This document shows, piece by piece, positions 1 through 23,056 of a stretch of 23,508 nucleotides of DNA (position 1 is its first letter; each line of letters opens with the position of its first letter). A model generated the notes under the pieces. It was not told the DNA's origin. It searched no databases and saw only the letters and a list, made by a program, of their open reading frames with translations. The DNA lies in IMG/VR virus record IMGVR_UViG_2857776322_000004, positions 74,353 to 97,860 of that record; one strand, given 5' to 3'. The position numbers and the translations under genes were made by a program. This DNA is from a virus.

Positions 1-2
1 AG

Positions 3-1983: not shown

Positions 1984-2024
1984 CCCCACATACCCGCCGT
2001 GCGCGAGCGCGGCGCCGTCCCAAC

Positions 2025-2068: not shown

Positions 2069-2075
2069 CAACCGC

Positions 2076-2735: not shown

Positions 2736-2748
2736 AAGCAGGACCCCG

Positions 2749-4718: not shown

Positions 4719-4731
4719 GGGAGGTGCGGTC

Positions 4732-5142
4732 GTGGCGTTCGTGCCCCCCTCCGCCGAGGACCTGGGGCTGTACCTGTCCCTCGGCGAGATCGACGGCGCC
4801 CGCGCCGACCTGATGATCCATCAGGCCGTGCTGCTGTGCGAGTCCGTCGTCACACCCCTGCCCGACGCTGCCTCCGTCGTCGTGCTGTCCGCCGCGGGCC
4901 GCGCCTACGCGAACCCCCAGGGCGTCAGCTACGAGACGATCGGCCCGATCAGCGTGCAACGGCCCCAGGCGGGCTTGTACTTGACCAAGGCCGAACGCAC
5001 CGCGCTGAAGGCGATGGCCGGGCGCGGCGGCGCGTTCACGATCGACCCCACCCCTGCGGACGCGACCCCCGTCCCGACCTATCCGATCGACGACGACGGC
5101 TGGTGGGGCCTCGAGTGGGAACCGGGCTGGGGGTGGATCTGA
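4732..5142 (+). CDS. Head-to-tail adaptor
   Basis: RAYANPQGVSYETIGP...GLYLTKAER motif of actinophage adaptors; GGAGG RBS; synteny. Confidence 0.8.
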   Translation: MAFVPPSAEDLGLYLSLGEIDGARADLMIHQAVLLCESVVTPLPDAASVVVLSAAGRAYANPQGVSYETIGPISVQRPQAGLYLTKAERTALKAMAGRGGAFTIDPTPADATPVPTYPIDDDGWWGLEWEPGWGWI

Positions 5143-5143
5143 C

Positions 5144-5506
5144 GTGGTCTTCCCCGTCCCGTTCGGGGTCACCCTGATCCGACTCCGGTCCGGACCGTCG
5201 CCGGGCCGGGATCCCTACGGCAAACCGATTCCCGGGCCGGTCGTCGAAACCCCCCTGCCCGGCTGTGTGGTCACGCCACGTCAGGCTGCTCCGGCCCCCG
5301 GAGGGTCCGAGCAACAGGCACGCGACACCGTCATCAAGGGCCTGACCGTGTACGCGCCCCCGGGAACGGACGTGCGCACCACCGACCGGTTCCGCCACCG
5401 CGGCCTCGTCTACGAGGTCACCGGCGAGCCGGGGGAGTGGGGGCCGTCGGCGTTCACCGGCACCGCCGGTTGCACGCAGTTCCTCCTCGACCGCATCACC
5501 GGCTGA
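5144..5506 (+). CDS. Head-to-tail stopper / head closure protein
   Basis: DPYG, TVYAPPGTDV..TDRF...G..YEV.GEP..W motifs; synteny. Confidence 0.8.
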   Translation: MVFPVPFGVTLIRLRSGPSPGRDPYGKPIPGPVVETPLPGCVVTPRQAAPAPGGSEQQARDTVIKGLTVYAPPGTDVRTTDRFRHRGLVYEVTGEPGEWGPSAFTGTAGCTQFLLDRITG

Positions 5507-5521
5507 CGAGGGGAGACCGAC

Positions 5522-5860
5522 ATGCCCACCCGGTTCAAGCTCGACAACAAGGGCGTCGGGGAACTCCTGCGCTCGCAGATGCTGCTGCGCGAGATGATCC
5601 GCCGGGCCCAGGCGATCAAGAGCACCGCCGAGGCGCTGGCCCCGGTGAGCCCACGCCCCGACGACTACCACTCGGGCCTGTACAAGACGTCGTTCAAGGT
5701 CATCGTCACCGACCGCGGCGCCCGTCGACACGACCGCGCCCAGGCCACCGTCCACAACTCCGCGTGGTATGCGGCCTGGGTCGAGTACGGCGCCGAGGGC
5801 GGACGCGGCGGCGGACACCACGTCCTGCTGCGCGCGGCAGAGGCAGCAGGCGGCGGCTGA
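5522..5860 (+). CDS. Neck protein (HK97 gp10-like)
   Basis: APV...SG.YK.SF and YAAWVEYG...HHVLLRA motifs; GGGGAG RBS; synteny. Confidence 0.75.
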   Translation: MPTRFKLDNKGVGELLRSQMLLREMIRRAQAIKSTAEALAPVSPRPDDYHSGLYKTSFKVIVTDRGARRHDRAQATVHNSAWYAAWVEYGAEGGRGGGHHVLLRAAEAAGGG

Positions 5861-6252
5861 TGGACGCCTTCGTCGACATCGAGGTCCTGCTCATCGCGTG
5901 GTTGTCGGCCGGCAGGCCCGGTACGACCTGGGCGGCCGAACTCGACAACGACCTCCTGTCCTACCTGCCGTGCGGCCAAGTGGTTCGCGTCGGCGGCGAC
6001 GACGACGGAACCCGGCTGGACCGGGCCCTCGTCGACGTCGACATCTACGCGGCCGGCCGGGCGCAGGCCGCCGACATCGCCGCGTGGACCCGCACCGCCC
6101 TCACCAGGAACCTGCCCGGGAGTTCGCTCCCCGGCGCGGTCGTCGGGCGCGTCTCCACGGTGTCCGCGCCCGCGTGGCGCCCCTACGAGAACACCGCGCT
6201 GCGCCGCATGGGCGCCACCTACGAGGTGTTCCTTCACCCGGCCGTGACCTGA
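5860..6252 (+). CDS. Tail terminator / tail completion protein, 130 aa
   Basis: TGATG coupling to the upstream gene; MDAFVDIE..., VVRVGG.DD, VDVDIYA motifs; position before the major tail gene. Confidence 0.75.
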   Translation: MDAFVDIEVLLIAWLSAGRPGTTWAAELDNDLLSYLPCGQVVRVGGDDDGTRLDRALVDVDIYAAGRAQAADIAAWTRTALTRNLPGSSLPGAVVGRVSTVSAPAWRPYENTALRRMGATYEVFLHPAVT

Positions 6253-6316
6253 CCGGCCCACTTTCCTTTCCGGCCCCGCCGCGCGTGGGGCCTTCGCACG
6301 TCTGGAGACACCCCCG

Positions 6317-6904
6317 ATGTCCCTTGTGATTCCCCGCGATGCCGATGTGACGATGGCAGGTGTGAACGGCGGAGGCTGGGTCGGCCCCCTGGGTACGGCC
6401 AAGCCCGCCAGTCCGCTTGCAACCCCTCCGCCGACCTGGGCCGCCCTGGGCCGCCTCACCGAGGACGGCCTGGTCCGCGGCTGGGACGAGGACTCCACCG
6501 AGTTCCGTTCCTGGGGTCAGACCGCGCCGTTCCGCACGATCATCACCAAGTCCAACAGGACCTTCAAGGTCGCGTGCCAGGAGATCAACCGGCCTGCGGT
6601 GATGAGCCTGTGGAACCGCATCCCCGAGGGCTCGCTGACGCCCGACGTCGACGGATTCGTCAACTTCGCCGAGACCGCGACGCCGGTTCCCGACCGGCGC
6701 GCCTGGTGGTTCATCGTCCTGGACGGCACGACGTTCCGCGGGTTCTACGTCCCCCAGGGCGAGATCAGCAACCGCGAGGACGAGACGTACAAGAACGACG
6801 AGTTGGCGACCTACAACATGACGATCACCGCGTACCCGGACGACGCCGGGAACACCGTCTACCACACCTACAAGGTCGCCACGGTGGACAGCCCCAGCAG
6901 CTGA
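6317..6904 (+). CDS. Major tail (tube) protein
   Basis: W..LG.LTEDG, EFRSWG, YNMTITAYPD motifs of actinophage tail tubes; GGAGA RBS. Confidence 0.88.
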   Translation: MSLVIPRDADVTMAGVNGGGWVGPLGTAKPASPLATPPPTWAALGRLTEDGLVRGWDEDSTEFRSWGQTAPFRTIITKSNRTFKVACQEINRPAVMSLWNRIPEGSLTPDVDGFVNFAETATPVPDRRAWWFIVLDGTTFRGFYVPQGEISNREDETYKNDELATYNMTITAYPDDAGNTVYHTYKVATVDSPSS

Positions 6905-6920
6905 CCCGCCATCACCGACC

Positions 6921-6958
6921 GGTGGGCGGGCGGCACTTCGCGGGACCGCCCGCCCACC
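6921..6958 (+). terminator. GC-rich stem-loop after the major tail gene (terminator or mRNA stabiliser)
   Basis: GGTGGGCGGGCGG-N12-CCGCCCGCCCACC, a 13-bp perfect stem. Confidence 0.65.
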
Positions 6959-7010
6959 ACCTCTCTACATCCCGCGACCCGCGACCCGCGAACCATCAGG
7001 AGTGAAACCC

Positions 7011-7463
7011 ATGAACGACGCCCCCACGCAGCCCTACGTCGACCTCGACCGGCCCCAGGCCGCCACGGCTGCGGAACCGCGGCAGGACATCGCGCGCGAA
7101 CCCGTCGTCGCCCGGGAGGCGAGCCCCGAATTCCGGGCGCAGGAGATCGAGGCCCTTGCCCCGGACGGATACGTGCGCGCGGACCTGGCCGGCGAGATCG
7201 ACGGCGAGACCGTCGTCGCCGAGGTCATGGCACTCATGCCCGGCAAATGGCGGGCATCGGTCATGCGCCTCCTGCGTGCGGGCGACTTCGACGGCTTCAT
7301 GTCCGCCGTCCTCACCGCGGACGGCTACGACGCCTATCTCGAACTCGACCCGAACCAGGACCAGTTCGCGGCCTTCGTCGAGGACCTGTCCACGAAGGGC
7401 GGCGAATCGGTGGGAAAGTCGAGTGGACGACGGGGATCTGCGACGCGTATGCGGAGGAGGTAG
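7011..7463 (+). CDS. Tail assembly chaperone (gpG-like)
   Basis: AGGAG 8 nt upstream of ATG 7011; lies between the major tail and tape measure genes; slippery site near its 3' end. Confidence 0.82.
   Translation: MNDAPTQPYVDLDRPQAATAAEPRQDIAREPVVAREASPEFRAQEIEALAPDGYVRADLAGEIDGETVVAEVMALMPGKWRASVMRLLRAGDFDGFMSAVLTADGYDAYLELDPNQDQFAAFVEDLSTKGGESVGKSSGRRGSATRMRRR
7412..7418 (+). promoter_or_regulatory. Programmed -1 frameshift slippery site G GGA AAG
   Basis: In-frame X XXY YYZ heptamer identical to the lambda G/T site; the -1 frame is open to 7870. Confidence 0.85.
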
Positions 7464-7870
7464 AAGCGGACCTCCGTTCCTACAGCGGCGTGAACTTTCT
7501 CGACGTCCATCGCGGACTCCTGACCTGGCGTCAGGTCCGGGTGATGATCGAGAAACTGCCGCCGGAGTCGGCGACGTGGACGGCGATCCGCAACGACGCC
7601 CCCGAACCCGCCGCCGACGATCCCCCCGGCCGGCCGCCCGAGGAGGGCCGCTGGTCCCAGGTGGAAATGCTCCTGGCCGCCGTATTGGAGGCCATCCGCG
7701 ATCTCCACCACCACGAGATCTGCGTGAACTGGGACACCTCCAAGGCCCCCCGCCCCGCGCCGCCCGACCGCATCCGGCGACCCGGATGGCGGCCTCCGAC
7801 AACGCAACTCGACCCGTCGCCCGCATGGGCGCGGGCACTGTTCGACGCCATCGTCGACGGCCCTACGTGA
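7412..7870 (+). CDS. Tail assembly chaperone -1 frame extension (gpT-like part of the gpGT fusion 7011..7870)
   Basis: Reads ...EVEADLRSYSGV..LD.HRGLLTWRQVRVMIEKLPPESAT..., typical of actinophage gpT; no independent RBS is evident. Confidence 0.82.
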   Translation, partial: GKVEWTTGICDAYAEEVEADLRSYSGVNFLDVHRGLLTWRQVRVMIEKLPPESATWTAIRNDAPEPAADDPPGRPPEEGRWSQVEMLLAAVLEAIRDLHHHEICVNWDTSKAPRPAPPDRIRRPGWRPPTTQLDPSPAWARALFDAIVDGPT

Positions 7871-7906
7871 CCCACGTCTGACACCAGCACGAGGAGGTGA
7901 CTCCTC

Positions 7907-10900
7907 GTGCCGATCACCGTGGGCACCGTCGAGGTGCACGTCATCCCCAACACCCAGGGGATCCTGACCCGGCTGCGCAACGGCATCCTGCCCGCCGCGA
8001 ACACCGTCGGCACCGAAGCCGGTCAGCAGATGGGCAACCGCCTCACCCAGGCACTCCAGGTCCAGGTCGTCGGGGCGGGCATCCGCATCGGGCGCCAGCT
8101 CGGCGAGGAGATCTCGCGGGAACTGCGCCGCGCGGTGCGCGACGCGCTCCCGGACACGATCCGCACGAGCGGCAAGTTGGCGGCCGCGCAGGGCGGGCGC
8201 GCTGGCGCCGAGACCGGCGGCGCATTCTCACGCGAGCTGAAGACCCGCGTCGAGGCCGCGGTTCGATCCCTACCCAACATCAAGGTCGGCGCCAACACCT
8301 CCGAGGCCGAGTCCGACCTCCAGGCGCTGCGGGTGCGGATGGAGTCTTTGCGCGACAAGCGCATCGGCATCGACATCGGCGCCGACGAGGCGCGCATCGA
8401 GGCGGAAGCCCTCGAGGCCGAACTGCGCCGCCTGGGCGCGATCAGCCCGAACGTCCGCGTCCGGGTCGACACCGCCCGTGCGATCGCCGAACTGGAGGCG
8501 ATGCGCGAGCAGATCAGGCTCGCGACCCTCAAGCCCTGGGAAGTCCGCCTCGAGGTGGACGGCGGGTTCGGCGCCCGGCTGCGCGCCGCAGTCCAGGCCG
8601 CGCAGGCGAGCCTGCCGAACATCAACATCGACTCCAACACGTCCCCGGCGCGTGCCCGGATCCAGGGCCTGCGCGCCGAGCTGGAGCAACTGCGCGACGT
8701 CCGCGTCGGCATCGACATCGACGCCGCCGCGGCGCAGGCGAAGATCGACCAGATTCGGGCCGAGCTGGCCAAGCTCGGGATGAACAAGGACGTCGACCTC
8801 GACGTCCGCGTCGACGCCATGAACGCGCGGCGCGAACTGAAGGCCGTCGAGCTCCAGGCCGACATCCTGGACCGCAAGCGGATCGACATTCCGATCCACA
8901 CCAGTTCGGCGATGAGCAACATCCTGCAACTCGCCGCCGCGCTGGGCGCCGTGATTGTGCCACCCGCGATCGGTGTCCTGGCCGCCGGCCTGGGCGCCGT
9001 CACCTCGGCCGCGTTCGCCGCTGCGGCGGGCATCGGCGCGGTCGCGCTCGTCGCCGTGCCCGGGATCATGAAGATCGCCGGCGCGTTGCAGGCACAGAAG
9101 GCCGCCAACGAAGCGGCAGCCACAGCCTCCGGGAAGTCCGGCGCGGCTGCCGCTCAGCAGGCGATCCAGGCCCAGCAGCAGGCCCTTCAGATGGAGGGCG
9201 CGCAGCAGACTCTCACCCAGGCGTACCGGCAGGCCGCCCAGCAGCGCGAACAGTCGCTGCGGCAGGTCTCGGCCGCGCAGCGTGCCGTCGGCGATGCCCA
9301 GGTGCAGGCGGCGGAGCGCGCGAGGCAGGCGGAACAGCAGCTCGTCGACGCCCAGGCCGACGCGCGGCGGGCGCAGATCGCGCTGACCGACGCCCGCAAG
9401 GCGGCGCGCCTGGAGTTGGAGGACATGCGGTCCCGGCTTGCCGGGGCGGCCCTCGACGAGCGCAGCGCGGTGCTGGCGGTCGAGCGCGCCCAGCAGCGGC
9501 TGGCTTCGACGCGCGAGGCCGGTGCGTCGGTGTCGCGGTTGGACCGCGAGGAAGCGCAACTCGCCTACGACGAGGCCGTACAGCGCCTGGAGGACCAGCG
9601 GCGCGAGAACGGCCGCCTCCAGGAGAGCGCGGCGGCTGCCGCGAAGGCGGGGGTGGAGGGCTCCGACCAGGTCGTCAAGGCCAAGGAGGCCGTGACGCAG
9701 GCCGATCGGCGCGCCGTCGAGGCCGCCGCCGGTGTCCGCACGGCGCAGACCGAGGGTGCGCGTGCCGTCGCGGACGCGCAGCAGCAACTCGCCGACGCGC
9801 AGCGCAACGCGGCACAGGCGGCTCAGCAGTCCGCGGACCAGGTCGCCTCCGCGCAGCGCGGTATCCAGTCGGCCCAACTCGCGGCGGCAGCCGCGGCCGA
9901 GCAGTCGGCCGGCGGCATGGATGCGGCGGCGACCGCCGCGCAGAAGTACCAGGACGCGCTCGCGAAGATGAACCCCGCGACGCGCTCCACCTACGACGCG
10001 GTCCTGCGGCTCAAGGACGCGTTCAAGGCGTGGTCCGATGCGGCTTCACCTGCGGTGATGCCGCTTTTCACGCGGTTCGTCGACGGTCTCACCAGGACTC
10101 TGCCGACGCTGACGCCGATGGTCATGGCAGCGGCCGACGGCATCGGGCGGCTGATGGACCGGGCCTCGCGCTCCTTCGCGCGCGACCCGTTCTGGGCCTC
10201 CTTCAAGGCCGACCTGACGATTGCGATGCCGCGTGCGATCGAGGGGATGGGGGTCTCTTTCGGCAATCTCTTCCGGGGGATCGCCGGGATCTTCGATGCC
10301 TTCAACCCTCACATGGACTCGATCGCCGCCCGCATGGAGAAGGCGACGGGCCGGTTCGCGAACTGGGGTACACAGCTCAAGGGTTCCCCCGAGTTCGAAC
10401 GGTTCCTGGACAACGCCTCACGCAACGCCCCCCTGTTGAAAGAGGCGTTCGCCGCGATGGGGCGGGCGATCCTCGAGGTGAGCAACGCGCTGGAACCTCT
10501 GCGCGGGCCGGCACTGGTGATCCTCACCGCCGTCGCGCAGTTCATCGCGCTGCTGGCCGAGCGGCTGCCCGGCGTCATCCAGTTCCTGGTTCTGTACGCG
10601 ATCGCGTGGCGCGCGATCAACACGGCGATGGCCATCAACGCGGCGGTGTCGAAGATGACGCCGATGGGCCAGCTCATCATGATCATCGCCGCCGTGATCG
10701 CGGTGATCGTGCTGTTGGTCCTGCACTGGGACAAGGTCACCGCCGTGTTCCGGTGGGTCTGGGAGCACGTGCTGCGGCCGGTGTTCCTCGCGATCGCCGA
10801 CGCGGCCGGAGTCATGTGGCGCAACGGCATCAAGCCGGTCGTCGACGGCCTGGTGGCCGGCTGGAACGCGGTCGCCGAGGCCGCGAACTGGCTGTGGCGC

Positions 10901-13159
10901 AAAGTGCTTTCGCCCGTGTTCGACGGCATCGGCGTCGGTGCGCGCATCCTCGCGGCGATCGTCCTCGTGATCCTGATCGCGCCGCTGCTGATCGCCTTCC
11001 GCCTTCTCGCGGCCATCGGGCTGTGGCTGTGGCACGACATATTCGAGCCCGTCTGGACCGGCATGTCCATGGCTGCGGACTGGGCCTGGCGGAACATCCT
11101 CAAGCCGACACTGGAGGGCATCGGCGCCGGGCTCGGCTGGGTCGGCGACCGCCTGGGCGACCTGTGGCACGGCGTGTTCGAGCCGGCCTGGTCGGGCATG
11201 TCCGGGGCGGCCGACTGGGCTTGGCGGAACATCCTCAAGCCGACGTTGGACGCCATCGGCGCCGGATGCGGCTGGGTCGGCGACCGCCTGGGCGACCTGT
11301 GGCACGGCGTGTTCGAGCCCGTCTGGTCGGGCATCTCGAGCGCGGTGTCGTTGGCGTGGAGCATGTTCCTGAAGCCGAGCTTCGACTCGATCACCGGCGG
11401 GATGCAGGCGGTCGGCTCCTGGGCCCAGGACCTCTACCAGGTCTGGATCAAGCCCTGGTTCGACAAGATCGGCGCGGTCATCGGCGACACGATGACCAAC
11501 GCCCAGAAAGCGTTCAGGGTTGCGATCGACGGGATCACCCTTCTCTGGGGATTCCTGAAGGAAATCGTCGCCGCGCCCGTGCGGTTCGTCGTCAACCAGG
11601 TCTACGACAAGGGCATCAAAAAGGTATGGAACTGGGTGGCCGACAAGGTCGGTTTGCCCTCCCTGCCGGACGGCGTGGCCGGATTCGCAAGCGGCGGTAT
11701 CTACCCGGGATATACGCCCGGGCGTGACATCGGGCTTGCCGCCGTTTCCGGTGGCGAGGCCATCATGCGTCCGGAATGGACGCGCGCCGTCGGCCCCGGA
11801 TTTGTCAACTCCATGAATGCCGCCGCCCGCAGCGGCGGTGTGGCCGGGGTGCGTTCCGCACTGTCCACGACGCCGATCGTGGGCGCGTATTCGTGGGGCG
11901 GAATCGTCGGCAGTGTCGTCGACACCGTCAAGTCGGGAATCGACGCGATTCCCGGCGCGTCCTGGGTCCTGGACAAGGGTGCCAGTCTCGCCCGGGGTTT
12001 CCTCGCGGGTTCCGTCGAGCTGGCGATGAAGCCTGTGCGGGCCATGATCGGGGAGATCCGAGGCGAGAGTCCCTGGTCGAAGGTCGCGCGCGGCCTGCCG
12101 AACAAGGCGATCGACGGTGTCATCGACTGGATCCGCGAGGACGACCGCAAGCAGGCGCTTTCCGGCGTCGGCGTCGCGGCGTCCGCGCTGCGCGAGGCCA
12201 TGACCTATGCGGGCGTGCCGTACCTGTGGGGCGGCACCTCGAGGTTGGGCATCGACTGTTCCGGCCTGACGCAGGCCGCCTACAAGGCGGTCGGTGTGGA
12301 GATCGGCCGCACGACCTACGACCAGGTCAAACGCGGCCGGCACATCGCGATGCGGGACGCCGTGCCCGGCGACTTGGTCTTCGAGCAGTTCGAAGGTCCC
12401 TCTCCGAGCCACGTCGGCATGTACCTGCGCCCCGGCGTCATCTGGAACGCGCCGCGCCCGGGACTGGGCGTCGGGGAGTCCGGAATCGCGAACGTCGTCG
12501 ACGTGCGCCGTATGGCGTCCGACGTCATGGGCGGCTCCGTGAGCGCCTTCGGCGACGTCGCCGGCTGGCTGCGGGCCGCGCTCGCGGCGACCGGGAAGCC
12601 GGCCGAATGGCTCGCACCGTTGATGACGATCGCGAAATTCGAATCGGGTGGAAATCCGCGTGCGGAAAACCACTGGGACTCGAACCAGCGATACGGCGGG
12701 ACGTTCGGGTTGATGCAGACCATTCCGCCGACTTTCAATGCATACAAGTTGCCCGGCATGGACGACATCCTGAACCCGATCCACAATGCAATTGCGGCGA
12801 TTCGCTACATTGCAGCCCGCTACGGAACTCCCTTCAATACTCCGGGAATTCGGTCGCTGTCGGCGGGCGGCGGTTATCTGGGATACAAGGCCGGCGGCAT
12901 CGTCCCGTTGGCGTTCGACAGCGGCGGCTATCTGCCTCCGGGGTTGAACCTGACGTACAACGGGCTCGGGCGGCCCGAGCCGGTTTTCACCCCGGCGCAG
13001 TCCGCAGCACTGTTCTCCGGGGTGCGCGGCGGCGACGGCGGGGGAGTGTTCACCGGCGAACTCCGCCTCTCGGGCGGGGAATTGCTGGGCGTCGTCGACG
13101 GCCGGATCGATCGCAAACAGGACGAACTCGCGGGTCGGCTCGGCATGGGCAGGGGGTGA
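7907..13159 (+). CDS. Tape measure protein, 1750 aa, with C-terminal NlpC/P60 peptidase and SLT-type lytic transglycosylase domains
   Basis: GAGGAGG RBS; long Ala/Gln coiled coil; Trp-periodic amphipathic repeats; GVPYLWGG..GIDCSG..HVGMY (~12190-12510); ESGGNP..GLMQ..NAIAAIRYI (~12570-12885). Confidence 0.93.
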   Translation: MPITVGTVEVHVIPNTQGILTRLRNGILPAANTVGTEAGQQMGNRLTQALQVQVVGAGIRIGRQLGEEISRELRRAVRDALPDTIRTSGKLAAAQGGRAGAETGGAFSRELKTRVEAAVRSLPNIKVGANTSEAESDLQALRVRMESLRDKRIGIDIGADEARIEAEALEAELRRLGAISPNVRVRVDTARAIAELEAMREQIRLATLKPWEVRLEVDGGFGARLRAAVQAAQASLPNINIDSNTSPARARIQGLRAELEQLRDVRVGIDIDAAAAQAKIDQIRAELAKLGMNKDVDLDVRVDAMNARRELKAVELQADILDRKRIDIPIHTSSAMSNILQLAAALGAVIVPPAIGVLAAGLGAVTSAAFAAAAGIGAVALVAVPGIMKIAGALQAQKAANEAAATASGKSGAAAAQQAIQAQQQALQMEGAQQTLTQAYRQAAQQREQSLRQVSAAQRAVGDAQVQAAERARQAEQQLVDAQADARRAQIALTDARKAARLELEDMRSRLAGAALDERSAVLAVERAQQRLASTREAGASVSRLDREEAQLAYDEAVQRLEDQRRENGRLQESAAAAAKAGVEGSDQVVKAKEAVTQADRRAVEAAAGVRTAQTEGARAVADAQQQLADAQRNAAQAAQQSADQVASAQRGIQSAQLAAAAAAEQSAGGMDAAATAAQKYQDALAKMNPATRSTYDAVLRLKDAFKAWSDAASPAVMPLFTRFVDGLTRTLPTLTPMVMAAADGIGRLMDRASRSFARDPFWASFKADLTIAMPRAIEGMGVSFGNLFRGIAGIFDAFNPHMDSIAARMEKATGRFANWGTQLKGSPEFERFLDNASRNAPLLKEAFAAMGRAILEVSNALEPLRGPALVILTAVAQFIALLAERLPGVIQFLVLYAIAWRAINTAMAINAAVSKMTPMGQLIMIIAAVIAVIVLLVLHWDKVTAVFRWVWEHVLRPVFLAIADAAGVMWRNGIKPVVDGLVAGWNAVAEAANWLWRKVLSPVFDGIGVGARILAAIVLVILIAPLLIAFRLLAAIGLWLWHDIFEPVWTGMSMAADWAWRNILKPTLEGIGAGLGWVGDRLGDLWHGVFEPAWSGMSGAADWAWRNILKPTLDAIGAGCGWVGDRLGDLWHGVFEPVWSGISSAVSLAWSMFLKPSFDSITGGMQAVGSWAQDLYQVWIKPWFDKIGAVIGDTMTNAQKAFRVAIDGITLLWGFLKEIVAAPVRFVVNQVYDKGIKKVWNWVADKVGLPSLPDGVAGFASGGIYPGYTPGRDIGLAAVSGGEAIMRPEWTRAVGPGFVNSMNAAARSGGVAGVRSALSTTPIVGAYSWGGIVGSVVDTVKSGIDAIPGASWVLDKGASLARGFLAGSVELAMKPVRAMIGEIRGESPWSKVARGLPNKAIDGVIDWIREDDRKQALSGVGVAASALREAMTYAGVPYLWGGTSRLGIDCSGLTQAAYKAVGVEIGRTTYDQVKRGRHIAMRDAVPGDLVFEQFEGPSPSHVGMYLRPGVIWNAPRPGLGVGESGIANVVDVRRMASDVMGGSVSAFGDVAGWLRAALAATGKPAEWLAPLMTIAKFESGGNPRAENHWDSNQRYGGTFGLMQTIPPTFNAYKLPGMDDILNPIHNAIAAIRYIAARYGTPFNTPGIRSLSAGGGYLGYKAGGIVPLAFDSGGYLPPGLNLTYNGLGRPEPVFTPAQSAALFSGVRGGDGGGVFTGELRLSGGELLGVVDGRIDRKQDELAGRLGMGRG
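11027..11335 (+). repeat. 135-bp (45-aa) tandem direct repeat, ~2.3 copies, within the tape measure gene
   Basis: TTCGAGCC recurs at 11042, 11177 and 11312; the peptide FEP.W.GMS.AADWAWRNILKPTL..IGAG.GWVGDRLGDLWHGV is repeated. Confidence 0.9.
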
Positions 13160-13162
13160 CCG

Positions 13163-15388
13163 GTGGCGATCAGCACGAACCTCCTCGACGCGAACACGTC
13201 CGGGTTCGAAACCAACATCGGGACCTGGACGGCCGGGAGCAACACCACGGCGGCCCGGGTCACCGGTGTCTGGTACACCGGCGCCGCGTGCATGCGGTTG
13301 ACGGCGACCGCGAACGGGTCGGTGGTCGCGACCACCGGGGCGGTGCCGATCACCGCCCTGTCCGAGTACCTGGCGTTCGCGTTCACCGCGAACACCGCGG
13401 CGGTCGCGGGCCGCACGGTGTCGCTGACCCTGACCTGGCTGAACGCATCCAACGCCACCGTCGGGACCTCGGTCGGCACCACCCCGACGGCCATGCCCGC
13501 GTCCACCGCGTGGGTCACACCCCCGACGTTCGTGGACGCCGTCGCCCCGGCGACCGCGACCCAGGTCAAACTCACCGTCACCGTGACGGGCATGCTCGCC
13601 GGCGGGCAGATCCTCGTCGACGAGGTCGGCCTCGGCCCGCCGCTCCTCCAGAGCGGCAACCTGCTGTTCTACAACGACCAGTCCATCGAGATGGACGCGA
13701 GCGGCTGGACGGCGTCCGTCAACTGCACGGCGGCGCGTTCGTCCGCCCAGTTCGTCGAGGGCTGGTACTCGCTCGCGGTCACCGCGACCGCGTCCGGCGA
13801 CGTCCAGGTCCGCTCGGTGGCGACACCGGCCGTCGCCGCCGGCACCGAGTACTTCGGGTACTTCTGGATCCGCACGCCGATTGCGCTCACGGTCCAGGCG
13901 GACCTGTGGTGGTACGACGCGTCGAACGCGCAGGTCGGGACGACCAGCACCACCACGGTCACCGCGGTGACGACCTGGCAGCGCCTGGGCGTGGCCGCGA
14001 AACCCCCGGCGACCGCGACCAAGGTCCGGCTCGTCGTCCGGCCGCAGGCCACCGCCGCCGCGCAGGTCGTGTACGTCGACCAGATGACGATCCGCACCGC
14101 GCCGTTCAGCGTGGCCGGCAACCTCCTCGCGTTCGGCGTCGAGTCGATGGAGTGCGATCTCACCGGCTGGGCCGCGGGGGCGAACGCGAGCATCGCCCGC
14201 ACCACCGCGCAGGCGTCCGCCGGCTTCTGGTCCATGGAGGTCACGACCCCCGCCGCCGGCCAGGGTCGCGCCCAGACAACCGCGCTCGTGCCGGTCGTCG
14301 CCGGCACCTACTACCTGGCCAAGCAGAGCTATCGGTCTGCGACCGCCGGCGCGATGTGGACCGACATCGACTGGTACGCCTCGGACGGCGTCACCTGGCT
14401 GGGCAACGCCGGCCCCGACCGGGACCTCGGCCTCACGCCCGGCTCTTGGTGGTCGAACACCATCGGCCGCAAGGCCCCGCCCGGCGCGGCGTGGGCCCGG
14501 GTGGTGTCCCTACCGCAGTCCACGCTCGCCGGTCAGGTGTGGTGGGTCGACGCGGTCGGCCTCAGCGTCGGCACTCCGCCCTACGAACTCACCGCCCACC
14601 CGGAAACGGGCTCCGCGACCCTGGTCATCAACAACGCCACCTCGTCCGGCGCCACCTCCATCACCGTGCACCGCGTCGACCCGGACGGCACCCGCTCGCC
14701 CGTCCGCGGCTACGGCGGCGACCTCGAGAACGTGGCCGTCCCGGGCGCGGTCATGGTCGTCACCGACTACGAGGTCCCCCTCGGCGCCGAGATCCACTAC
14801 GAGTACATCCGGCACGCCCCCGGGCCGCCCGCCGTCGACTACAGCACCGGCACCACCGGCATCGTCGTGGCTCCGCCGGCCGACCCGGCGTATGTATGGC
14901 TGTCCGACCCGGGCCAACCCGCCCGATCCATCCGGCTCATGATCGAGAAGCCGCCGGACTGGACGTTCGGCATCGAACGGGCCGTGTATCGGGTGCGGGG
15001 CCGTGCCGACCCGATCGTGCGCTCCGACGTGCGCCGGACCCCGGAAGGCGACCTGGCCGCCTACACCTGGACCACCAGCGACGACACCCAACTGCGGTTC
15101 ACGCTGGAGACCGGCCACGTCCTGCTCCTGCGGGCGCGGCCCGGCTGGGGCCTCGACTACCAGTACGTGTCCGTGGGATCCGTGCAGTCGCCCCGCGTGG
15201 TGCAGATGGGTTCCGAGGCCGGCCGGCGCTGGACCCTGCCGCTCACCGTCGTCGCCCGCCCGACCGGCGGCATGGTCGGGTCCGCGTCCCGTACCTGGCA
15301 GACCGTCAAGGACGACGCGACCGCGACCACCTGGGCTGCGGTCCTCGCGAAGTACTCGACGTGGCTCGACGTCCTCCAGGGGGTGTGA
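13163..15388 (+). CDS. Minor tail protein (distal-tail-like) with three N-terminal carbohydrate-binding-module-like repeats
   Basis: First gene after the tape measure; three ~155-aa repeats starting NLL...E....W at 13178, 13658 and 14120; C-terminal WLSDP...GR.DP region. Confidence 0.72.
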   Translation: MAISTNLLDANTSGFETNIGTWTAGSNTTAARVTGVWYTGAACMRLTATANGSVVATTGAVPITALSEYLAFAFTANTAAVAGRTVSLTLTWLNASNATVGTSVGTTPTAMPASTAWVTPPTFVDAVAPATATQVKLTVTVTGMLAGGQILVDEVGLGPPLLQSGNLLFYNDQSIEMDASGWTASVNCTAARSSAQFVEGWYSLAVTATASGDVQVRSVATPAVAAGTEYFGYFWIRTPIALTVQADLWWYDASNAQVGTTSTTTVTAVTTWQRLGVAAKPPATATKVRLVVRPQATAAAQVVYVDQMTIRTAPFSVAGNLLAFGVESMECDLTGWAAGANASIARTTAQASAGFWSMEVTTPAAGQGRAQTTALVPVVAGTYYLAKQSYRSATAGAMWTDIDWYASDGVTWLGNAGPDRDLGLTPGSWWSNTIGRKAPPGAAWARVVSLPQSTLAGQVWWVDAVGLSVGTPPYELTAHPETGSATLVINNATSSGATSITVHRVDPDGTRSPVRGYGGDLENVAVPGAVMVVTDYEVPLGAEIHYEYIRHAPGPPAVDYSTGTTGIVVAPPADPAYVWLSDPGQPARSIRLMIEKPPDWTFGIERAVYRVRGRADPIVRSDVRRTPEGDLAAYTWTTSDDTQLRFTLETGHVLLLRARPGWGLDYQYVSVGSVQSPRVVQMGSEAGRRWTLPLTVVARPTGGMVGSASRTWQTVKDDATATTWAAVLAKYSTWLDVLQGV

Positions 15389-15389
15389 A

Positions 15390-16499
15390 GTGCTCACCGT
15401 CACCCCACGGTTCCTGCCCGCGCTCACCCTGAGCCACAACCAGGCCGGGAGGGTCGACGTCCTCCAGGGCGTCACCCTCCTGCTGTCCGGCGTCCCCTAC
15501 GAGGACGGCACCGTCACCGCGGACGCCGGATCCGACGTCCGCTATTCGATGACGCTCACCGTCTCCGACCCGTCCCTCCTCCCGTTCGACCCCGCGGACT
15601 TTCTCGCCCCCTACGGCCAGGCACTGCACCCCTACCAGGGCCTGACCTACACCGACGGCACCACCGAGGTCGTGCCCTGCGGCGTCCACGTGATCACCCA
15701 GGTGTCCGGGGACCGCGACACGGGCCCGGTCACCGTCACCGCCAAGGGACGCGAAGTCGTCGTCCAGGCGGCCAGGTTCACCGCCTCGTGGGACACGCGC
15801 GGGTTCGGCTCCCACGTCGACGCGATCTCCGCCGCCGTGATCACGGTCATGCCGGCCGTCGTCGTCGACGACCGCACCACCCACGACCGCACCCCCGCCT
15901 ACCGGGTCTGGAAGGCGGGCGACGACCGATGGTCCGCCTGCCGTGAACTCGCCAAGGCCATCGGCGCGAGTTGCTACTTCGACGCGGTCGGCACACTCGT
16001 GGTCGCCGACCTGCCGCCCGCCCCCGACGGCGCGACCCCCGTGTGGGACGTCGCCGCGGGCCCCGGCGGCGTCCAGGTGTCCGCCGGCTGGGGACTGTCC
16101 TCCGACGGCCTCTACAACGGCGTCCGCGCGTCCGGCCAGAACTCCACCGACAACGTCGCCCCCGTCACCGACCTCGTCGTCGACACCGACCCCACCAGCC
16201 CGACCCGCTGGGGCGGACCCCTCGGTCAGCGCCTGCTCACCTACGAATCGCCGCTCCTGATCACGACCGGGGACTGCACCGTCGCCGCCGAAGGTCTCCT
16301 GCGCACCGGCATCGGCCTCAAGACCACCGTCGACCTGCAATCGGTCCCCAACCCCGCCCTGGAACCGGGGGACTGCGTGCGCACGATCTACACCGACGGC
16401 ACCCGCACCCTCCACATCGTGCGCTCCCTCACCATCCCCCTCGGCGACGGACCCTGCTCCATCAAGACCATGTCGGCGGCCGACGACCCGGAGCCCTGA
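15390..16499 (+). CDS. Minor tail protein (baseplate hub / Tal-like), 369 aa
   Basis: GTG 15390 just after the upstream stop; DRWSAC.ELA, YNGV, SPTRWGGPLG, PNPALEPGD motifs seen in Streptomyces phage hub proteins. Confidence 0.75.
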   Translation: MLTVTPRFLPALTLSHNQAGRVDVLQGVTLLLSGVPYEDGTVTADAGSDVRYSMTLTVSDPSLLPFDPADFLAPYGQALHPYQGLTYTDGTTEVVPCGVHVITQVSGDRDTGPVTVTAKGREVVVQAARFTASWDTRGFGSHVDAISAAVITVMPAVVVDDRTTHDRTPAYRVWKAGDDRWSACRELAKAIGASCYFDAVGTLVVADLPPAPDGATPVWDVAAGPGGVQVSAGWGLSSDGLYNGVRASGQNSTDNVAPVTDLVVDTDPTSPTRWGGPLGQRLLTYESPLLITTGDCTVAAEGLLRTGIGLKTTVDLQSVPNPALEPGDCVRTIYTDGTRTLHIVRSLTIPLGDGPCSIKTMSAADDPEP

Positions 16500-16750
16500 T
16501 GGACCTCGCCGACATCATCCACGACGTCGTGCGCCGCCTGCTGGACGAATCCTCCGCCGACTGGCGCATGGGCACCGTCACCGCCCTCACCCCCGACTCC
16601 ACCGCCGGAACCCTCCTCGTCGACGTCGGCGGCGGCACCGTCGTCAAAGCCCGCCGCGCCGCCACCTACACCAGCCCCGTCGTGGGCGACCGCGTGTGGG
16701 CGGACCGCAACCGGGCCGGCGAATGGCGCGTGACCGGCAAGCTCGCCTGA
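16499..16750 (+). CDS. Small tail-tip protein, 83 aa (possible OB-fold)
   Basis: TGATG coupling; GTVT...YTSPVVGDRVW...W.V.GKL pattern; synteny. Confidence 0.6.
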   Translation: MDLADIIHDVVRRLLDESSADWRMGTVTALTPDSTAGTLLVDVGGGTVVKARRAATYTSPVVGDRVWADRNRAGEWRVTGKLA

Positions 16751-16805
16751 ACCCACGAACCCCCCTGCAACGCCCGGCAATCACGAGTCCGGGTGGAGGT
16801 GACGC

Positions 16806-17387
16806 ATGCCCGCTACCGACAAATACGGCCAGGAGATCCCCTACTCGCTCCTCACCGACTCACCCGACGCCCAAGCCCTCGGCAAGGGCATCGCCGACGC
16901 CGCCGCCGGACGCTCCGTCATGCGGTTCGCATCCGCGGCCAACCGCGGCGCCACCCTCATCGGCGACTCCGCCGCCCAGGAGGGCATGGTCACCTACGTC
17001 AAGGACGCGGACCGCATCGACTACTACGACGGCGCGAACTGGCAGCCCCTGACGCCCGGCCCCTGGATCCCGTTCCCCGTGGCGTCCGGCATCTCCTACA
17101 ACTCCGGCAGCCCCGCCTACCGGCTGGTCAACGGCGTCGTGGAAATGCGCGGCACCCTGCGCCGCACCGACGGCGAAGGCTTCGACGCCGAGAGCGTCAT
17201 CCACCTGGGAACCCTGCCCGGCGGCTACTGGCCCGGCTACTACCGCTACTACATCGTCGCCACCGAGTGGGCCGCGCAGATCCACGCCCGCCTGGAGATC
17301 GACCCCACCAACGGCTGGATCAACGCCCTCATCCTCGAGGGCTCCCCGCACTGGATCGCCGTGGACGGCGTGTCCTCCAGCCTCTGA
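16806..17387 (+). CDS. Minor tail / tail fibre-associated protein, 193 aa
   Basis: GGAGG RBS; MRFASAA.R...EGMVTY...YDGANW N-terminal motif and YR..NG.V..RG...LP.GY.P C-terminal motif. Confidence 0.65.
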   Translation: MPATDKYGQEIPYSLLTDSPDAQALGKGIADAAAGRSVMRFASAANRGATLIGDSAAQEGMVTYVKDADRIDYYDGANWQPLTPGPWIPFPVASGISYNSGSPAYRLVNGVVEMRGTLRRTDGEGFDAESVIHLGTLPGGYWPGYYRYYIVATEWAAQIHARLEIDPTNGWINALILEGSPHWIAVDGVSSSL

Positions 17388-17453
17388 CCCCTCGCCACAC
17401 CCCGGGCCGCAACAGCCCGAGGACCCCCCCTTTTCCCGCGCCCGGAGAACCCC

Positions 17454-17687
17454 ATGCCCCACTACCACGCCGCGATCGTCCACCCCGGCGACGAGACCAC
17501 CTACTGCGGAATCGTCCCCGGCGAGCACGTCGAAGCGGTACTCGCCGCCTGCGAAACCCACCCCGAACGCGAACCCAAAACCGGCCGCGACGGCGGGATC
17601 TACGTGCTCCGCGCCGACGGCGACCTCGACCACTACCTCCCCGTCGACGCCCCCGCGCGCCCGACCGAAACAGCGGTGACCCCATGA
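17454..17687 (+). CDS. Hypothetical protein, 77 aa
   Basis: GGAGA RBS; GC3-rich codons; its stop overlaps the endolysin ATG (ATGA). Confidence 0.65.
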   Translation: MPHYHAAIVHPGDETTYCGIVPGEHVEAVLAACETHPEREPKTGRDGGIYVLRADGDLDHYLPVDAPARPTETAVTP

Positions 17688-18844
17688 CCGGACCGTCCTA
17701 CATCCCCGGCGCCGAACGCCTCGGCCCCGACACCGGCGGCTCCATGGACACCCCGAACCTGCCGCCGCGCGCCGTCTGGCACACCGTCGAATCCCCCTCC
17801 GGCAGCGGCTGGTTCACCTCGATGGCGTCCTACCTCAAGCGCGAATCCGTCTGGCCGCAGGTCCTCTACGACCCCGCCTCCGACCGCCTCGGCCAATTCG
17901 CCGCCCTCGACACCAGCGGCCGAGCCCTGCGCAACGACGGCACCTCACGCACCAACCGCACCGGCCGCGTCTGCATCCAGGTCGAGGTGTGCGGACGCGC
18001 CTCCGAACCGTGGACCGACGGCTTCGACCCGGCCGGCAAACCCAACTTCCTGAAGCTGATCGGCGCGATGCGCGCCTGGGGCATCCCCGACACCTGGCCC
18101 GCCGGCGCCCCCCAGCGCTACCCGGGAGACCACGACGACCGCGACCGCGCCACCTGGCTGGGCCGCGGCGGCCACTACGGGCACAGCCAAATCCCCGGCA
18201 ACGACCACGGCGACCCCGGCGCGATCGACACCTCGAAGGTCCCACCGAACGGCACCACCACCCCCGGCGGCGGATCCCCCGGCGGCGTCTCCCGAGCCCA
18301 GGACTCCATCAACGGACTCCTCTACGGCTACGGCGCGCACGGCGACCACGTCACCGCGGTGGGCCGAGCCCTGGTCGCGGCCGGCTTCGGCAGCCACTAC
18401 ACCACCGGACCCGGACCGGACTGGACCGATGCCGACACCCTCAACTACGCCGACTACCAACGCTCGTTGGGATACCGCGGATCCGACGCCGACGGCGTCC
18501 CCGGCGAGGAATCCCTCATCCGCCTCCTCGGAGCCCTGCCCTCCCGCAACGACACGCCGACCGTGTCCCTGTCCAACCTGATCGCCGCCGCCCGCGCCGA
18601 CGTCCCCGCCGCAACCGGCCACCTCACCCACCCCGACGACGTCCTGACCGTGGAGAACGCCCTCGTCGCCGAGGGCCTGCTGGCCTCCTCCTACGCGGAC
18701 GGCTCCTACGGCACCCGGACCGTCTCCGCCTACGCCGCCTGGCAACGCCGCCTCGGCTACTCGGGATCGGACGCCGACGGCTACCCCGGACGAACCTCGC
18801 TGAGCAGGCTCGGCGACGCACACGGATTCAAGGTGACCCCATGA
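17684..18844 (+). CDS. Endolysin: Zn amidase (Amidase_2-like) plus two peptidoglycan-binding domains, 386 aa
   Basis: AVWHTVES, IQVEVCG, HYGHSQIPGNDHGDPG amidase motifs; two YA.(Y/W)QR.LGY.GSDADG.PG..SL.RL repeats. Confidence 0.88.
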   Translation: MTGPSYIPGAERLGPDTGGSMDTPNLPPRAVWHTVESPSGSGWFTSMASYLKRESVWPQVLYDPASDRLGQFAALDTSGRALRNDGTSRTNRTGRVCIQVEVCGRASEPWTDGFDPAGKPNFLKLIGAMRAWGIPDTWPAGAPQRYPGDHDDRDRATWLGRGGHYGHSQIPGNDHGDPGAIDTSKVPPNGTTTPGGGSPGGVSRAQDSINGLLYGYGAHGDHVTAVGRALVAAGFGSHYTTGPGPDWTDADTLNYADYQRSLGYRGSDADGVPGEESLIRLLGALPSRNDTPTVSLSNLIAAARADVPAATGHLTHPDDVLTVENALVAEGLLASSYADGSYGTRTVSAYAAWQRRLGYSGSDADGYPGRTSLSRLGDAHGFKVTP

Positions 18845-19311
18845 CCACGACCATCCCCGGCAAGTACCTCGCCACCCTGGCCGAACGCACCGCAGCGTCC
18901 TTCGTCGAGGCATTCGCGTCCGCGTGGATGGTCGCGGACGCCTACAACCTGAGCACGGCCGAGACCGCCGCCCTGGCCGGCGTCATGGCCGCGCTGACCG
19001 TCCTGCGCGCGGCCCTCACCTCGTTCCTTGGCCACCGCGCCGCCGACCCCACCATCCGCACCGGATACGCCTACGCCGTCGACGTGTTCGAGCGCGTGGC
19101 CGCAACGTTCGCCGAAGCCGGCATCGCCGCACTCCTCCTGGCCGGCACCCTCGACCTCTCGCATGCCCGAGCGGCCGGCTTCGCGGGCCTGACCGCCGCG
19201 CTCTCCGTACTCAAGGCACTCCTCGCCCGCTTCGTGGGCTCCACAGCGACCGCATCGCTGCTCCCCGCCGCCAAGGACCCGGGCACACCGCCCGGGTCGC
19301 GACCGGCCTGA
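18841..19311 (+). CDS. Holin, r1t-like, internally duplicated, 156 aa
   Basis: ATGA coupling to the endolysin; two ER.AA(S/T)F.EA...AAL(T/S)VL(R/K)A.L hydrophobic units. Confidence 0.75.
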   Translation: MTTTIPGKYLATLAERTAASFVEAFASAWMVADAYNLSTAETAALAGVMAALTVLRAALTSFLGHRAADPTIRTGYAYAVDVFERVAATFAEAGIAALLLAGTLDLSHARAAGFAGLTAALSVLKALLARFVGSTATASLLPAAKDPGTPPGSRPA

Positions 19312-19327
19312 GCGGGCGGGTGCTGCC

Positions 19328-19675
19328 ATGCCCGATGAGCTGACCGTCGGAGAGTTGGGCCGATCGATCGACGCCCTCCGCGGCGAACTCCGCGACGGCA
19401 TGGCGGCCCTGAACGCCCGCCTGGACCGCATGGTGACCACCGAGGTGTACGCGGCGCAGAGCGCCCATACCGAATGGCGGATGGCCGAACTCGCCCGCGA
19501 ACTCGAAAAGTTGCGCAACGAGGCGGCGCGCCTCGAGGACGACTTCGAGGCGTACCAGCGGGCCGAGCAGGAACGCCGGGAACGCGACCGGCAGACCCGC
19601 CTGTACTCGGCGATCATCCCGATCCTCCTGGGGGTGCTGGCGGTGGCGGCGACGATATGGGCGGCGATCCGATGA
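19328..19675 (+). CDS. Lysis-cassette membrane protein (coiled coil plus C-terminal TM helix), 115 aa
   Basis: Charged heptad region followed by the hydrophobic stretch [23 protein letters not shown]. Confidence 0.7.
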
Positions 19676-20295
19676 GCGAACAGGCCCCCACCACGGGCCG
19701 CCGACGCCTTCGCGGCGCCGAATGGCTCGCCGTCGTCACCGTGATCCTCGCCCTCGCCGGCGCGGGATGGCTCGCCGTCCAGGTCGTGCAACTCTCCGCC
19801 GAGCTGCGCGACGCCAACCGAGCACGCGACCAACTCGCCACCCAGGTACAGGGAATGGGCGGCACACCCGTCGCCGGACCACCGGGCAGCCGCGGCGACC
19901 CGGGCAAATCCGGCGAGCAGGGACCGCCCGGGGAACCCGGACGCGACGGAGCCCCCGGAATCGGCGCCACCGGGCCGCCCGGACCACCCGGACCCTCCGG
20001 TCCTCCCGGCTCCCAGGGCGGCGACGGCCGCAACGGCGCCGACGCCACGGGCCCGCCCGGCCCCCCGGGCGCCGACGGCACGACCGGCGCGGCCGGACCC
20101 GCCGGCCCCCAGGGCGAACCCGGGCCTCCGGGGCCGGCAGGCGCAGCGGGGGAGCGGGGCGCCTCCGGCCCGCCGGGCCCGGCCTGCCCGAGCGACTACG
20201 GCCTCGCGACCCCGACCTGGGACCCGAACGCACTCGTGTGCACCCGCACCGCCCCGACCGGCACCCCCACGACCACCGCCGCACGGCGCAGATAG
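19672..20295 (+). CDS. Membrane-anchored collagen-like (Gly-X-Y) protein, 207 aa
   Basis: ATGA coupling; N-terminal TM helix, short coiled coil, interrupted G-X-Y tract, C-terminal Cys pair. Confidence 0.8.
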
Positions 20296-22297: not shown

Positions 22298-22627
22298 TCA
22301 GTTGCGGTTCTCGACCTCGTCCTCGACGCCGTCCTGGGGGTAGGTGGCGGCGAAGGCTTCGCGGATGGCCTGTTCGGCGTTGTCGCTGATGGTGATCCAG
22401 GAATAGGTGTCGAGGTCGCTGGGGTTGTCCTCGGCCAAGTCCGGCCGGATGGGGCGCTTGGAGATGATCGTCGCGCCCTCGCCGTCGATCGCGATGATGT
22501 CCGCGAGGAAGCTGTGGATCGCGTCGTGTGCTTCGCGGTCGCTGCCGACGTATTTGCGCATGTCGTCGAGGAGGTCGTAGGGGTGGATGGTGCGGCCGGT
22601 GCGGTGGCTCGCGATTTCGGTGGTCAT
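22298..22627 (-). CDS. Small acidic hypothetical protein, 109 aa (anti-CRISPR candidate)
   Basis: GAAGGAG RBS; about 23 D/E against 10 K/R by hand count; first gene of the leftward unit. Confidence 0.75.
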   Translation of the reverse strand: MTTEIASHRTGRTIHPYDLLDDMRKYVGSDREAHDAIHSFLADIIAIDGEGATIISKRPIRPDLAEDNPSDLDTYSWITISDNAEQAIREAFAATYPQDGVEDEVENRN

Positions 22628-22680: not shown

Positions 22681-22710
22681 AACCTTGCTACACAGTGAAG
22701 CAAAGTTCAA
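22681..22710 (-). promoter_or_regulatory. Leftward promoter overlapped by a 27-bp imperfect palindromic operator
   Basis: Minus strand TTGAAC-N17-CAAGGT; palindrome AACCTTGCTACAC-A-GTGAAGCAAAGTT at 22681-22707; AT-rich island. Confidence 0.6.
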
Positions 22711-22741: not shown

Positions 22742-22820
22742 GTTCGGCGATCCACTGCACACCCGTCGGGACGACCCGATACGGTCTACATACCGGCACC
22801 GCTTCGGCGGGATCGGTAAC

Positions 22821-22995
22821 CTGCTCCCCGCATCTGCGGGGATGGCCCTGATTACAGGGGCGCCAGGCACTGCTCCCCATGCATATGGGGATGGCCCGGA
22901 TTCGATGGGCAAGCTGCATTGCTCCCCGAGCACTCGGGGATGACCCTGATTGCAGGGGTGCCCGACCTTGTTCCCCGCGCATGCGGGGATGCGAA
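22821..22995 (+). CRISPR. Orphan type I-E-like CRISPR mini-array: 4 repeats, 3 short (20-nt) homologous spacers, 49-nt period
   Basis: Repeats start at 22821 CTGCTCCCCGCATCTGCGGGGATGGCCCT, 22870 CTGCTCCCCATGCATATGGGGATGGCCCG, 22919 TTGCTCCCCGAGCACTCGGGGATGACCCT and 22968 TTGTTCCCCGCGCATGCGGGGATG (3'-degenerate). They resemble the I-E repeat GTGTTCCCCGCGCCAGCGGGGATAAACCG. No cas genes are in the window. Confidence 0.88.
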
Positions 22996-23003
22996 GCCCC
23001 ACC

Positions 23004-23025
23004 GCCTCACGGTGGTGAGGCTTTT
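23004..23025 (+). terminator. Intrinsic terminator closing the mini-array transcript
   Basis: GCCTCAC-GGTG-GTGAGGC-TTTT immediately after repeat 4. Confidence 0.7.
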
Positions 23026-23028
23026 GTG

Positions 23029-23056
23029 CTGTCCACACCCGGCCCGGTTGTCCACA
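23029..23056 (+). promoter_or_regulatory. Two direct DnaA-box-like 9-mers
   Basis: CTGTCCACA (23029-23037) and TTGTCCACA (23048-23056; the actinomycete consensus). Confidence 0.4.

Follow-up and report, generated by a model that had tools for sequence, protein, structure and literature searches.

The window, which is the whole 23,508-nucleotide stretch of viral DNA analyzed here, carries a block of structural and lysis genes from a tailed prophage at 1..20295 on the plus strand, those for the portal, head protease, scaffold, major capsid, head-tail, tail, tape measure, and endolysin proteins. PHROG matches were obtained for 16 of the 25 window ORFs scanned, and no att repeat pair was identified. 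The ORF at 3231-4718 (plus strand), between the capsid and head-tail genes, has a glycosyltransferase-like PHROG hit. A leftward operon contains a 79-aa ORF (21984-22223, minus strand) that matches a PHROG family, with a weak DNA-binding-protein hit, and is possibly a regulator of the operon. An acidic protein of 109 aa, with 23 D/E and 10 K/R residues, is encoded at 22298..22627 on the minus strand, divergently from the array described below. An imperfect palindrome lies between the divergent units, upstream of the leftward genes, at 22685..22703, and is predicted to be an operator. The orthologous prophage locus of a second genome, G002, has a different palindrome at the equivalent position, as would be predicted for the operator of a changing repressor.

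The array consists of four 29-nt type I-E-like repeats in 22821-22996 on the plus strand, with a period of 49 and three 20-nt spacers, compared with 32 nt for canonical spacers. R1 (22821..22849) has the common GC/GC inner stem and the loop ATCT, R2 (22870..22898) has two compensated inner pairs (AT/AT) and the loop GCAT, R3 (22919..22947) has one compensated transversion pair (GA/TC) and the loop GCAC, and the terminal repeat, R4 (22968..22996), has the common stem and a degenerate 3' handle. Between them are the 20-nt guides S1 (22850..22869), S2 (22899..22918), and S3 (22948..22967). The 8-nt handle is intact in R1-R3, while its 3' end is lost in R4, as in a terminal repeat. R1-R4 differ from the type I-E repeat of a genome of the same genus, G005, at 6, 7, 6, and 8 of 29 positions, respectively, and they are identical to each other at 19-21 of 29. 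The longest exact match between array units is 7-11 nt.

The hairpins start at 22825, 22874, 22923, and 22972, with exactly the sequences given in the original prediction. It had also been claimed that every stem change is matched on the opposite arm, and this is what we find. All 6 stem changes fall within the two pairs next to the loop and make 3 Watson-Crick pairs, two in R2 and one in R3, and the 7-bp stem and 4-nt loop are perfect in all four repeats despite these three double substitutions. If 6 changes fell at random on 16 inner-stem sites, the chance of three complete Watson-Crick pairs would be 2.6e-4, a value that is post hoc. Folding of the transcript gives the R3 hairpin a predicted probability of just 0.26-0.55 (37 °C), and with no limit on the pair span, R1 is paired to R4. 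When the arms of unlike stems are combined, the duplexes are 0.6-4.3 kcal/mol weaker than the cognate ones.

A promoter for the array is predicted at 22756..22785 (plus strand), with a -35-like TGCACA, 18 nt, and a -10-like TACGGT. The two hexamers and their spacing are conserved in the G002 orthologue, where the upstream gene and the -35/-10-like pair are followed by a first repeat with canonical stem and loop and then by the contig end. A sigma-70 promoter scan returned 0 sites and did not call the predicted promoter. At 23000..23029 (plus strand) there is an intrinsic-terminator-like hairpin and T run, with 2 overlapping sites, compared with 0.8 ± 1.1 in shuffles. From this arrangement, the array is likely one transcription unit with three different short spacers. 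The ORF directly past the terminator (64 aa, 23140-23335, plus strand) has a hydrophobic N-terminus, a strong ribosome-binding site, and no family match.

What kind of element is this? Rfam gave no match at gathering level, only three weak chance hits, none of them on the array. A canonical type I-E array was rejected because the repeats diverge and the spacers are 20 nt; the canonical arrays of relatives have a period of 61. REP/BIME-like repeats are GGATC/GTCA-flanked hairpins in many scattered copies, often as inverted pairs. Hits of this type turned up in the pattern scans and were removed from the sets, and the label was rejected for the window, whose repeats are direct, have CRISPR-type handles, and form a single cluster in the genome.

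The array sits among prophage genes, outside any CRISPR-cas locus. Profiles for cas6e, cas1, and cse1 had zero matches in the 10.96-Mb, 98.6% complete genome, and no other I-E hairpin cluster or array was found elsewhere in it; cse1 is present in 7 of 10 genomes of the same genus. Since its genome has no Cascade gene match, the array would be idle in this lysogen. The spacers have no PAM-plus-seed site in their own genome, where only three weak S2 matches without a PAM were seen, and no record in the phage collection matches the array.

A cognate host locus for S1 and S3 was found in only one of the 10 same-genus genomes, G005. Its I-E locus has cas3-cse1, cas1, and cas2, and it terminates in a 20-nt guide preceded by a repeat and followed by a degenerate one. 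Some 200 bp beyond this unit, the opposite strand has AAC followed by 15 bases identical to the guide. S1 is identical to both this guide and this target at positions 1-11 and 13-15, and its AAC-PAM target is located at 17497-17519 of L073, on the minus strand. Across the 450 kb of cas loci covered by the search, such a combination of PAM and match would arise by chance with a probability of about 1e-4. Every sixth guide position does not pair in type I-E, and position 12, where S1 is mismatched, is presumably one of these. For type I-F1 Cascade, unpaired every-sixth positions are stated in 10.1101/2023.03.03.530964 (statements on cited papers, here and below, refer to the passages covered). 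S1 shares 11 consecutive PAM-proximal bases with the G005 guide, and S3, a paralogue of S1 (15/20 identical), shares 10 of the first 11. Over its first 15 positions, S3 agrees with the G005 target at 14, the exception being seed position 5. The array end in G005 is a regulatory-type unit with two further degenerate repeats, and a 40-aa hydrophobic ORF follows the target (L073 17271-17420 and 17583-17705).

S2 and the first spacer of the G002 orthologue have a common ATGGGCA core at positions 7-13. No target or host guide for S2 was found in the 450 kb of 48 cas-locus stretches. Three PAM-seed pattern hits for S2 in same-genus genomes were rejected, none being in a repeat or an evident cas context, as were six further hits (2 viral, 4 in the family) at a non-repeat site or in ordinary 32-nt spacers. 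An S3-like site in G003 has neither the AAC PAM nor a repeat, and two further GATT-pattern hits in 400 genomes are due to chance.

A scan of the genome collection for the repeat together with the guide motif gave 17 loci. Eight are host I-E units, one at L112 (the same stretch as L073) and seven in records titled Streptomyces. An AAC-PAM target lies nearby in all eight, and its first five bases vary in step with the guide; the seeds agree at 10/10 positions in seven and at 9/10 in one, with 0 matches in 300 shuffles each. For another seven loci, neither a target nor a cas hit within 4 kb was found, and three of these seven match window prophage proteins. The remaining two are chance hits in canonical arrays. 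No local AAC target was found at 8 viral loci examined, and several prophage-type seeds equal host target seeds. In many prophage arrays, the guide family keeps seed positions 1-5 and 7-11, while the PAM-distal bases vary freely, and AGGGG at positions 7-11 is common to S1, S3, and several actinomycete-type arrays. A two-repeat pattern allowing periods of 38-56 matched 52 viral loci, of which 11 were set aside for lack of a CRISPR-type handle or a REP-like appearance. The period is 49-50 in 34 of the 41 viral loci with a CRISPR-type handle, a redundant set.

What does the host target control? In the seven Streptomyces loci, it lies just past a -10-like hexamer and spans the 5' leader of a conserved ORF together with its ribosome-binding site, which is rich in purines. 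The ORF encodes 72-76 aa, including two hydrophobic stretches, and the host guide comes next. In six of the seven, the other strand has cse1 or cas3 reading away from this ORF. Genes for the two-helix membrane peptide are found in L111 (4163-4390, minus strand), L118 (3685-3900, plus strand), L113, L117, L123, L125, L127, L296, and L297. The peptide has 22 database homologues and no Pfam family over the cut-off, and the family is unmatched in the 10 same-genus genomes. A search of 400 family genomes gave two strong matches, each with a guide and an AAC target and thus two more host units, and 16 weaker matches with no repeat nearby. The layout resembles CreTA/CrePA, and by this analogy the peptide is a candidate CRISPR-repressed toxin. 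In G005, the target does not lie before this peptide gene: it is downstream of the cas operon, on the strand opposite the 40-aa hydrophobic ORF and some 65 bp upstream of it; no convincing promoter could be placed there. The gene repressed by the window array may be this small hydrophobic ORF, possibly a CreT-like toxin, or the cas genes.

Is the stem compensation special to the window? Repeats were collected by their outer five pairs only, and the test covers the two inner pairs and the loop. Removing arrays with spacers at least 75% alike reduced the short-spacer arrays with CRISPR-type handles from 104 to 56 and the canonical arrays from 62 to 47 (766 repeats). The window, L023, and L209 (the latter two in the wrong orientation) were left out of the short set, giving 53 arrays with 130 repeats. 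Within these 53 arrays there are 27 inner-stem changes, comprising 12 Watson-Crick doubles, 11 G-U pairs, and 4 mismatches, whereas the 13 changes in the canonical arrays comprise 0 doubles, 3 G-U pairs, 8 mismatches, and 2 that are unclassified. Fisher tests gave p = 0.0035 for doubles and p = 0.0011 for paired versus broken, with related arrays not being independent. Pairing was thus kept in 23 of 27 changes in short arrays versus 3 of 13 in canonical arrays, which supports the selection on the hairpin that the original prediction had proposed. That prediction would have been contradicted by frequent unpaired stem substitutions in homologues, and these account for only 4 of the 27 changes.

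With pairs counted directly on a gap-free alignment of 132 repeats, both-side changes occupied 43 cells, versus 11.4 ± 2.4 in shuffles, a difference inflated by relatedness and two common repeat types. Loop sites show 0.42-0.51 differences per site between neighboring repeats, while stem pairing is kept. Among single transitions, G-U outnumbers A-C by 11 to 4 (one-sided p = 0.059, not significant), which leans toward selection at the RNA level. Some compensated difference between repeats is present in 12 of 54 short arrays, and the window, with 3 events, is the extreme. The AT/AT stem variant of R2 recurs in the host guide repeats of L118 and L297, and the GA/TC variant of R3 in L011 and the G002 prophage arrays. 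Host guide repeats also have half-way or broken stems, with a wobble in L125 and one broken pair in L123 and L111. Since the same variants and the half-way and broken forms are found in host guide repeats, some stems may have been imported, not changed in place. The compensation is genuine and typical of the short-spacer class, not special to the window locus. Taken by themselves, compensatory changes are unsurprising, being expected of any constrained RNA stem. The hairpin selection across the class supports the arrays being processed RNAs, and it means that searches by repeat identity will miss many such arrays.

The original prediction missed the main feature, the mimicry of host regulatory crRNA-like RNAs by the short guides. 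We propose, with a probability of roughly 80%, that the prophage array, with its four I-E-like repeats and the 20-nt guides S1-S3, functions as a Cracr array. The repeats resemble the host CRISPR repeat, being identical to that of G005 at 21-23 of 29 positions with perfect stems and, in R1-R3, an intact handle. Liu et al. (10.1101/2024.10.29.618823) use a criterion of at least 9 PAM-proximal bases, and the 11 consecutive bases of S1 exceed this for the host CreA/CreR-like guide. Furthermore, the CRISPR-cas locus of G005 supplies S1 with a PAM-flanked host target.

In the proposed mechanism, the array would be transcribed from about 22790, the predicted start. In a type I-E host, cleavage of the transcript by Cas6e at the base of every stem would leave the 8-nt handle and release three 49-nt RNAs; cleavage at the stem base with an 8-nt handle is the E. 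coli rule (PMC4288178). The 49-nt RNAs would load a shortened Cascade, with a guide 12 nt shorter, which would bind AAC-PAM sites in the host CRISPR-cas locus without cutting and likely repress a nearby promoter. The S. thermophilus I-E Cascade with a shortened spacer forms R-loops, with no locking and no Cas3 triggering (PMC6859484). Such a Cascade is expected to repress its target instead of cutting it. The array-loaded Cascade would also compete with the true immune crRNAs. We infer transcription, processing, Cascade loading, repression, and the identity of the repressed gene. The stem changes would be drift under purifying selection: freed from Cas1-Cas2 copying, the loop and loop-proximal pairs vary, and the surviving repeats keep a hairpin that Cas6e can cut. 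Some stem variants probably came in with host guide units. The inference of the original prediction that Cas1-Cas2 no longer copies the array is in keeping with the divergence of the repeats, the spacer length of 20 nt, and the absent cas1 match.

The array is similar to the Cracr arrays of Liu et al. in being prophage-borne, away from cas genes, and made of degenerate I-E repeats with several guides per unit. The spacers are short in both (21 and 24 nt there, 20 nt in the window), and the guides resemble host CreR/CreA, with a PAM-flanked match in a CRISPR-cas locus. That work validated a Salmonella prophage I-E Cracr array, and it lists 20 I-E arrays, four of them with three spacers, and Actinomycetota targets. 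However, the I-E Cracr tested there represses the casA promoter, whereas the S1 target in G005 adjoins a small hydrophobic ORF and the related targets in Streptomyces lie over the ribosome-binding site of a gene for a membrane peptide. As for CreR/CreA in CreTA and CrePA, the G005 and Streptomyces loci have a repeat-short guide-repeat unit, an AAC/AAG-type PAM, and partial complementarity, with the same guide motif as the window. In contrast, these host units are inside CRISPR-cas loci beside their target, and the window array has no cas gene or target in its own genome. As CreT/CreP toxins, RNAs or a KilAC protein have been described (10.1101/2024.01.05.574328), not a two-helix membrane peptide. 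Shmakov et al. (10.1101/2023.03.03.530964) describe phage copies of host mini-arrays with conserved seeds and with stem-loops conserved while the nucleotide identity varied, all as in the window. Their examples are I-B and I-F1, and the passages covered hold no compensation count. The Racrs of Camara-Wilpert et al. (PMC10651486) are also phage-borne RNA mimics of CRISPR repeats, whose Cas6 binding needs the stem-loop. They are single repeats acting by sequestration, unlike the four repeats, guides, and PAM-flanked target found here.

Other readings of the array can be set against a Cracr function. In a pure decoy, or Racr-like sponge, the RNAs would soak up Cas6e, Cas7, and Cas5, and the guides would be relics of captured host units without DNA targeting. 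The missing target of S2 and the seed mismatch of S3 favor this, as does the inhibition of a type I-E system by two I-E Racrs (PMC10651486), and competition for Cas proteins is also a Cracr property (10.1101/2024.10.29.618823). We consider it improbable, since the seed of the guides is kept in many prophage arrays and in several equals host target seeds while the PAM-distal bases vary, and since Racrs are solitary repeats and the window has four repeats and S1 with its PAM-flanked target. Even less credible is a decaying ordinary CRISPR array, or a defense mini-array targeting other mobile elements, although virus-borne mini-arrays for inter-viral conflict are known (PMC6858448). Three spacers of 20 nt are below the length that triggers Cas3, two of them are paralogues that match a host regulatory guide, the phage collection holds no match to the array, and the stems are intact. 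The match of S1 to the G005 locus already contradicts this reading.

The origin of the stem changes is a separate question. Template-switch correction of imperfect palindromes is a DNA-level mechanism that could have produced the doubles in a Cracr array without RNA selection. The R3 pair, also in L011, is a double transversion without a G-U intermediate, as such a mechanism would allow, and the excess of G-U over A-C is not significant. However, none of the 13 events in canonical arrays, which are equally palindromic, is a double, G-U intermediates are frequent, at 11 of the 27 short-array events, and the loops differ between neighbors while the stems stay paired, so this origin seems unlikely to us. 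The divergence of the repeats could instead be adaptive, stopping recombinational loss of units or mispairing of neighboring hairpins, or fitting different Cas6e variants, which we regard as conceivable but doubtful. The short exact matches between units point in this direction, as do the weaker cross-arm duplexes of unlike stems and the mispairing of the two identical stems in the unconstrained fold. In haloarchaea, degenerate CreA repeats resist recombination and set Cas6 specificity (Cheng et al., PMC9458426). Thus, the suggestion in the original prediction that divergence guards against recombinational collapse is plausible. On the other hand, few short arrays have a compensated difference, and neutral drift under a pairing constraint explains the data. 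The local folding of unique-stem repeats exceeds that of the others by a small margin that is not significant (0.63 vs 0.50; n = 37 vs 97; p = 0.08). Nothing here favors the Cas6e-variant version, the changes being confined to the loop and loop-proximal pairs.

The 109-aa protein beside the array is a candidate anti-CRISPR by linkage. It has no Pfam or PHROG match, no usable Atlas hit, and no relative on viral contigs, and two database proteins were found. Homologues occur in 7 of 400 family genomes (L334-L339 and L120 are among the loci noted). I-E repeat-like units are within 1.5 kb of the homologue in six of the seven, five with several units and one with a single clear repeat, the gene and the mini-array being divergent, and the seventh has none; at L120, the protein is likewise linked to an array. 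One might tentatively picture an undescribed streptomycete I-E toxin module, in which a CreA-like guide directs Cascade to the leader and ribosome-binding site of a gene for a small membrane-peptide toxin, prophage Cracr arrays with variant seeds silence the toxin in several hosts, and the linked 109-aa protein disables Cascade immunity, as the I-E counterpart of AcrIF24-CracrIF.

The compensation itself is anticipated in print, by conserved stem-loops with varied sequence and by recombination-resistant degenerate repeats. The host guides over the ribosome-binding site of the uncharacterized 72-76-aa membrane-peptide gene are possibly new, as is perhaps the presence of an uncharacterized 109-aa protein adjoining such arrays. 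The main text of Liu et al., in the portions covered, makes no mention of Streptomyces or of compensatory changes, and its Table S2 may hold the family of the window. There are 0 mentions of Streptomyces in the covered parts of the main texts of 10.1101/2024.10.29.618823, 10.1101/2023.03.03.530964, 10.1101/2024.01.05.574328, 10.1101/2023.03.10.532045, and PMC10651486. The literature searched, with few subscription papers, held no streptomycete I-E CreTA membrane peptide and no compensation count for such arrays. The window provides a three-guide Cracr candidate in actinomycetes with a PAM-flanked target named. If the linked leads are true, type I-E would gain a CreT-like toxin that is a membrane peptide, and there would be a new family of anti-CRISPR proteins.

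Other arrays were seen in the scans. A two-repeat I-E mini-array with a conserved 21-nt guide and a terminator is widespread on other viral contigs (L007, L008, L012, L019, L022, L037-L039, L044, and L052), and L003, L015, and L049 have short-spacer arrays of 4-5 repeats. These mini-arrays and arrays are likely further Cracr families. The motif GTGCCATAGT is found closely upstream of the prophage-type arrays L017, L026, L029, L033, L121, L122, L126, L133, and L135, and is probably an extended -10 promoter element. In G002, three contigs have related short-spacer arrays built on another I-E repeat type (GTCGGCCCC...), at L080 (1934-1700, minus strand) and at the contig starts of L323 and L324, and GA/TC compensated stems are seen in these arrays as well. 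One contig of G002 holds both array types, about 1.7 kb apart.
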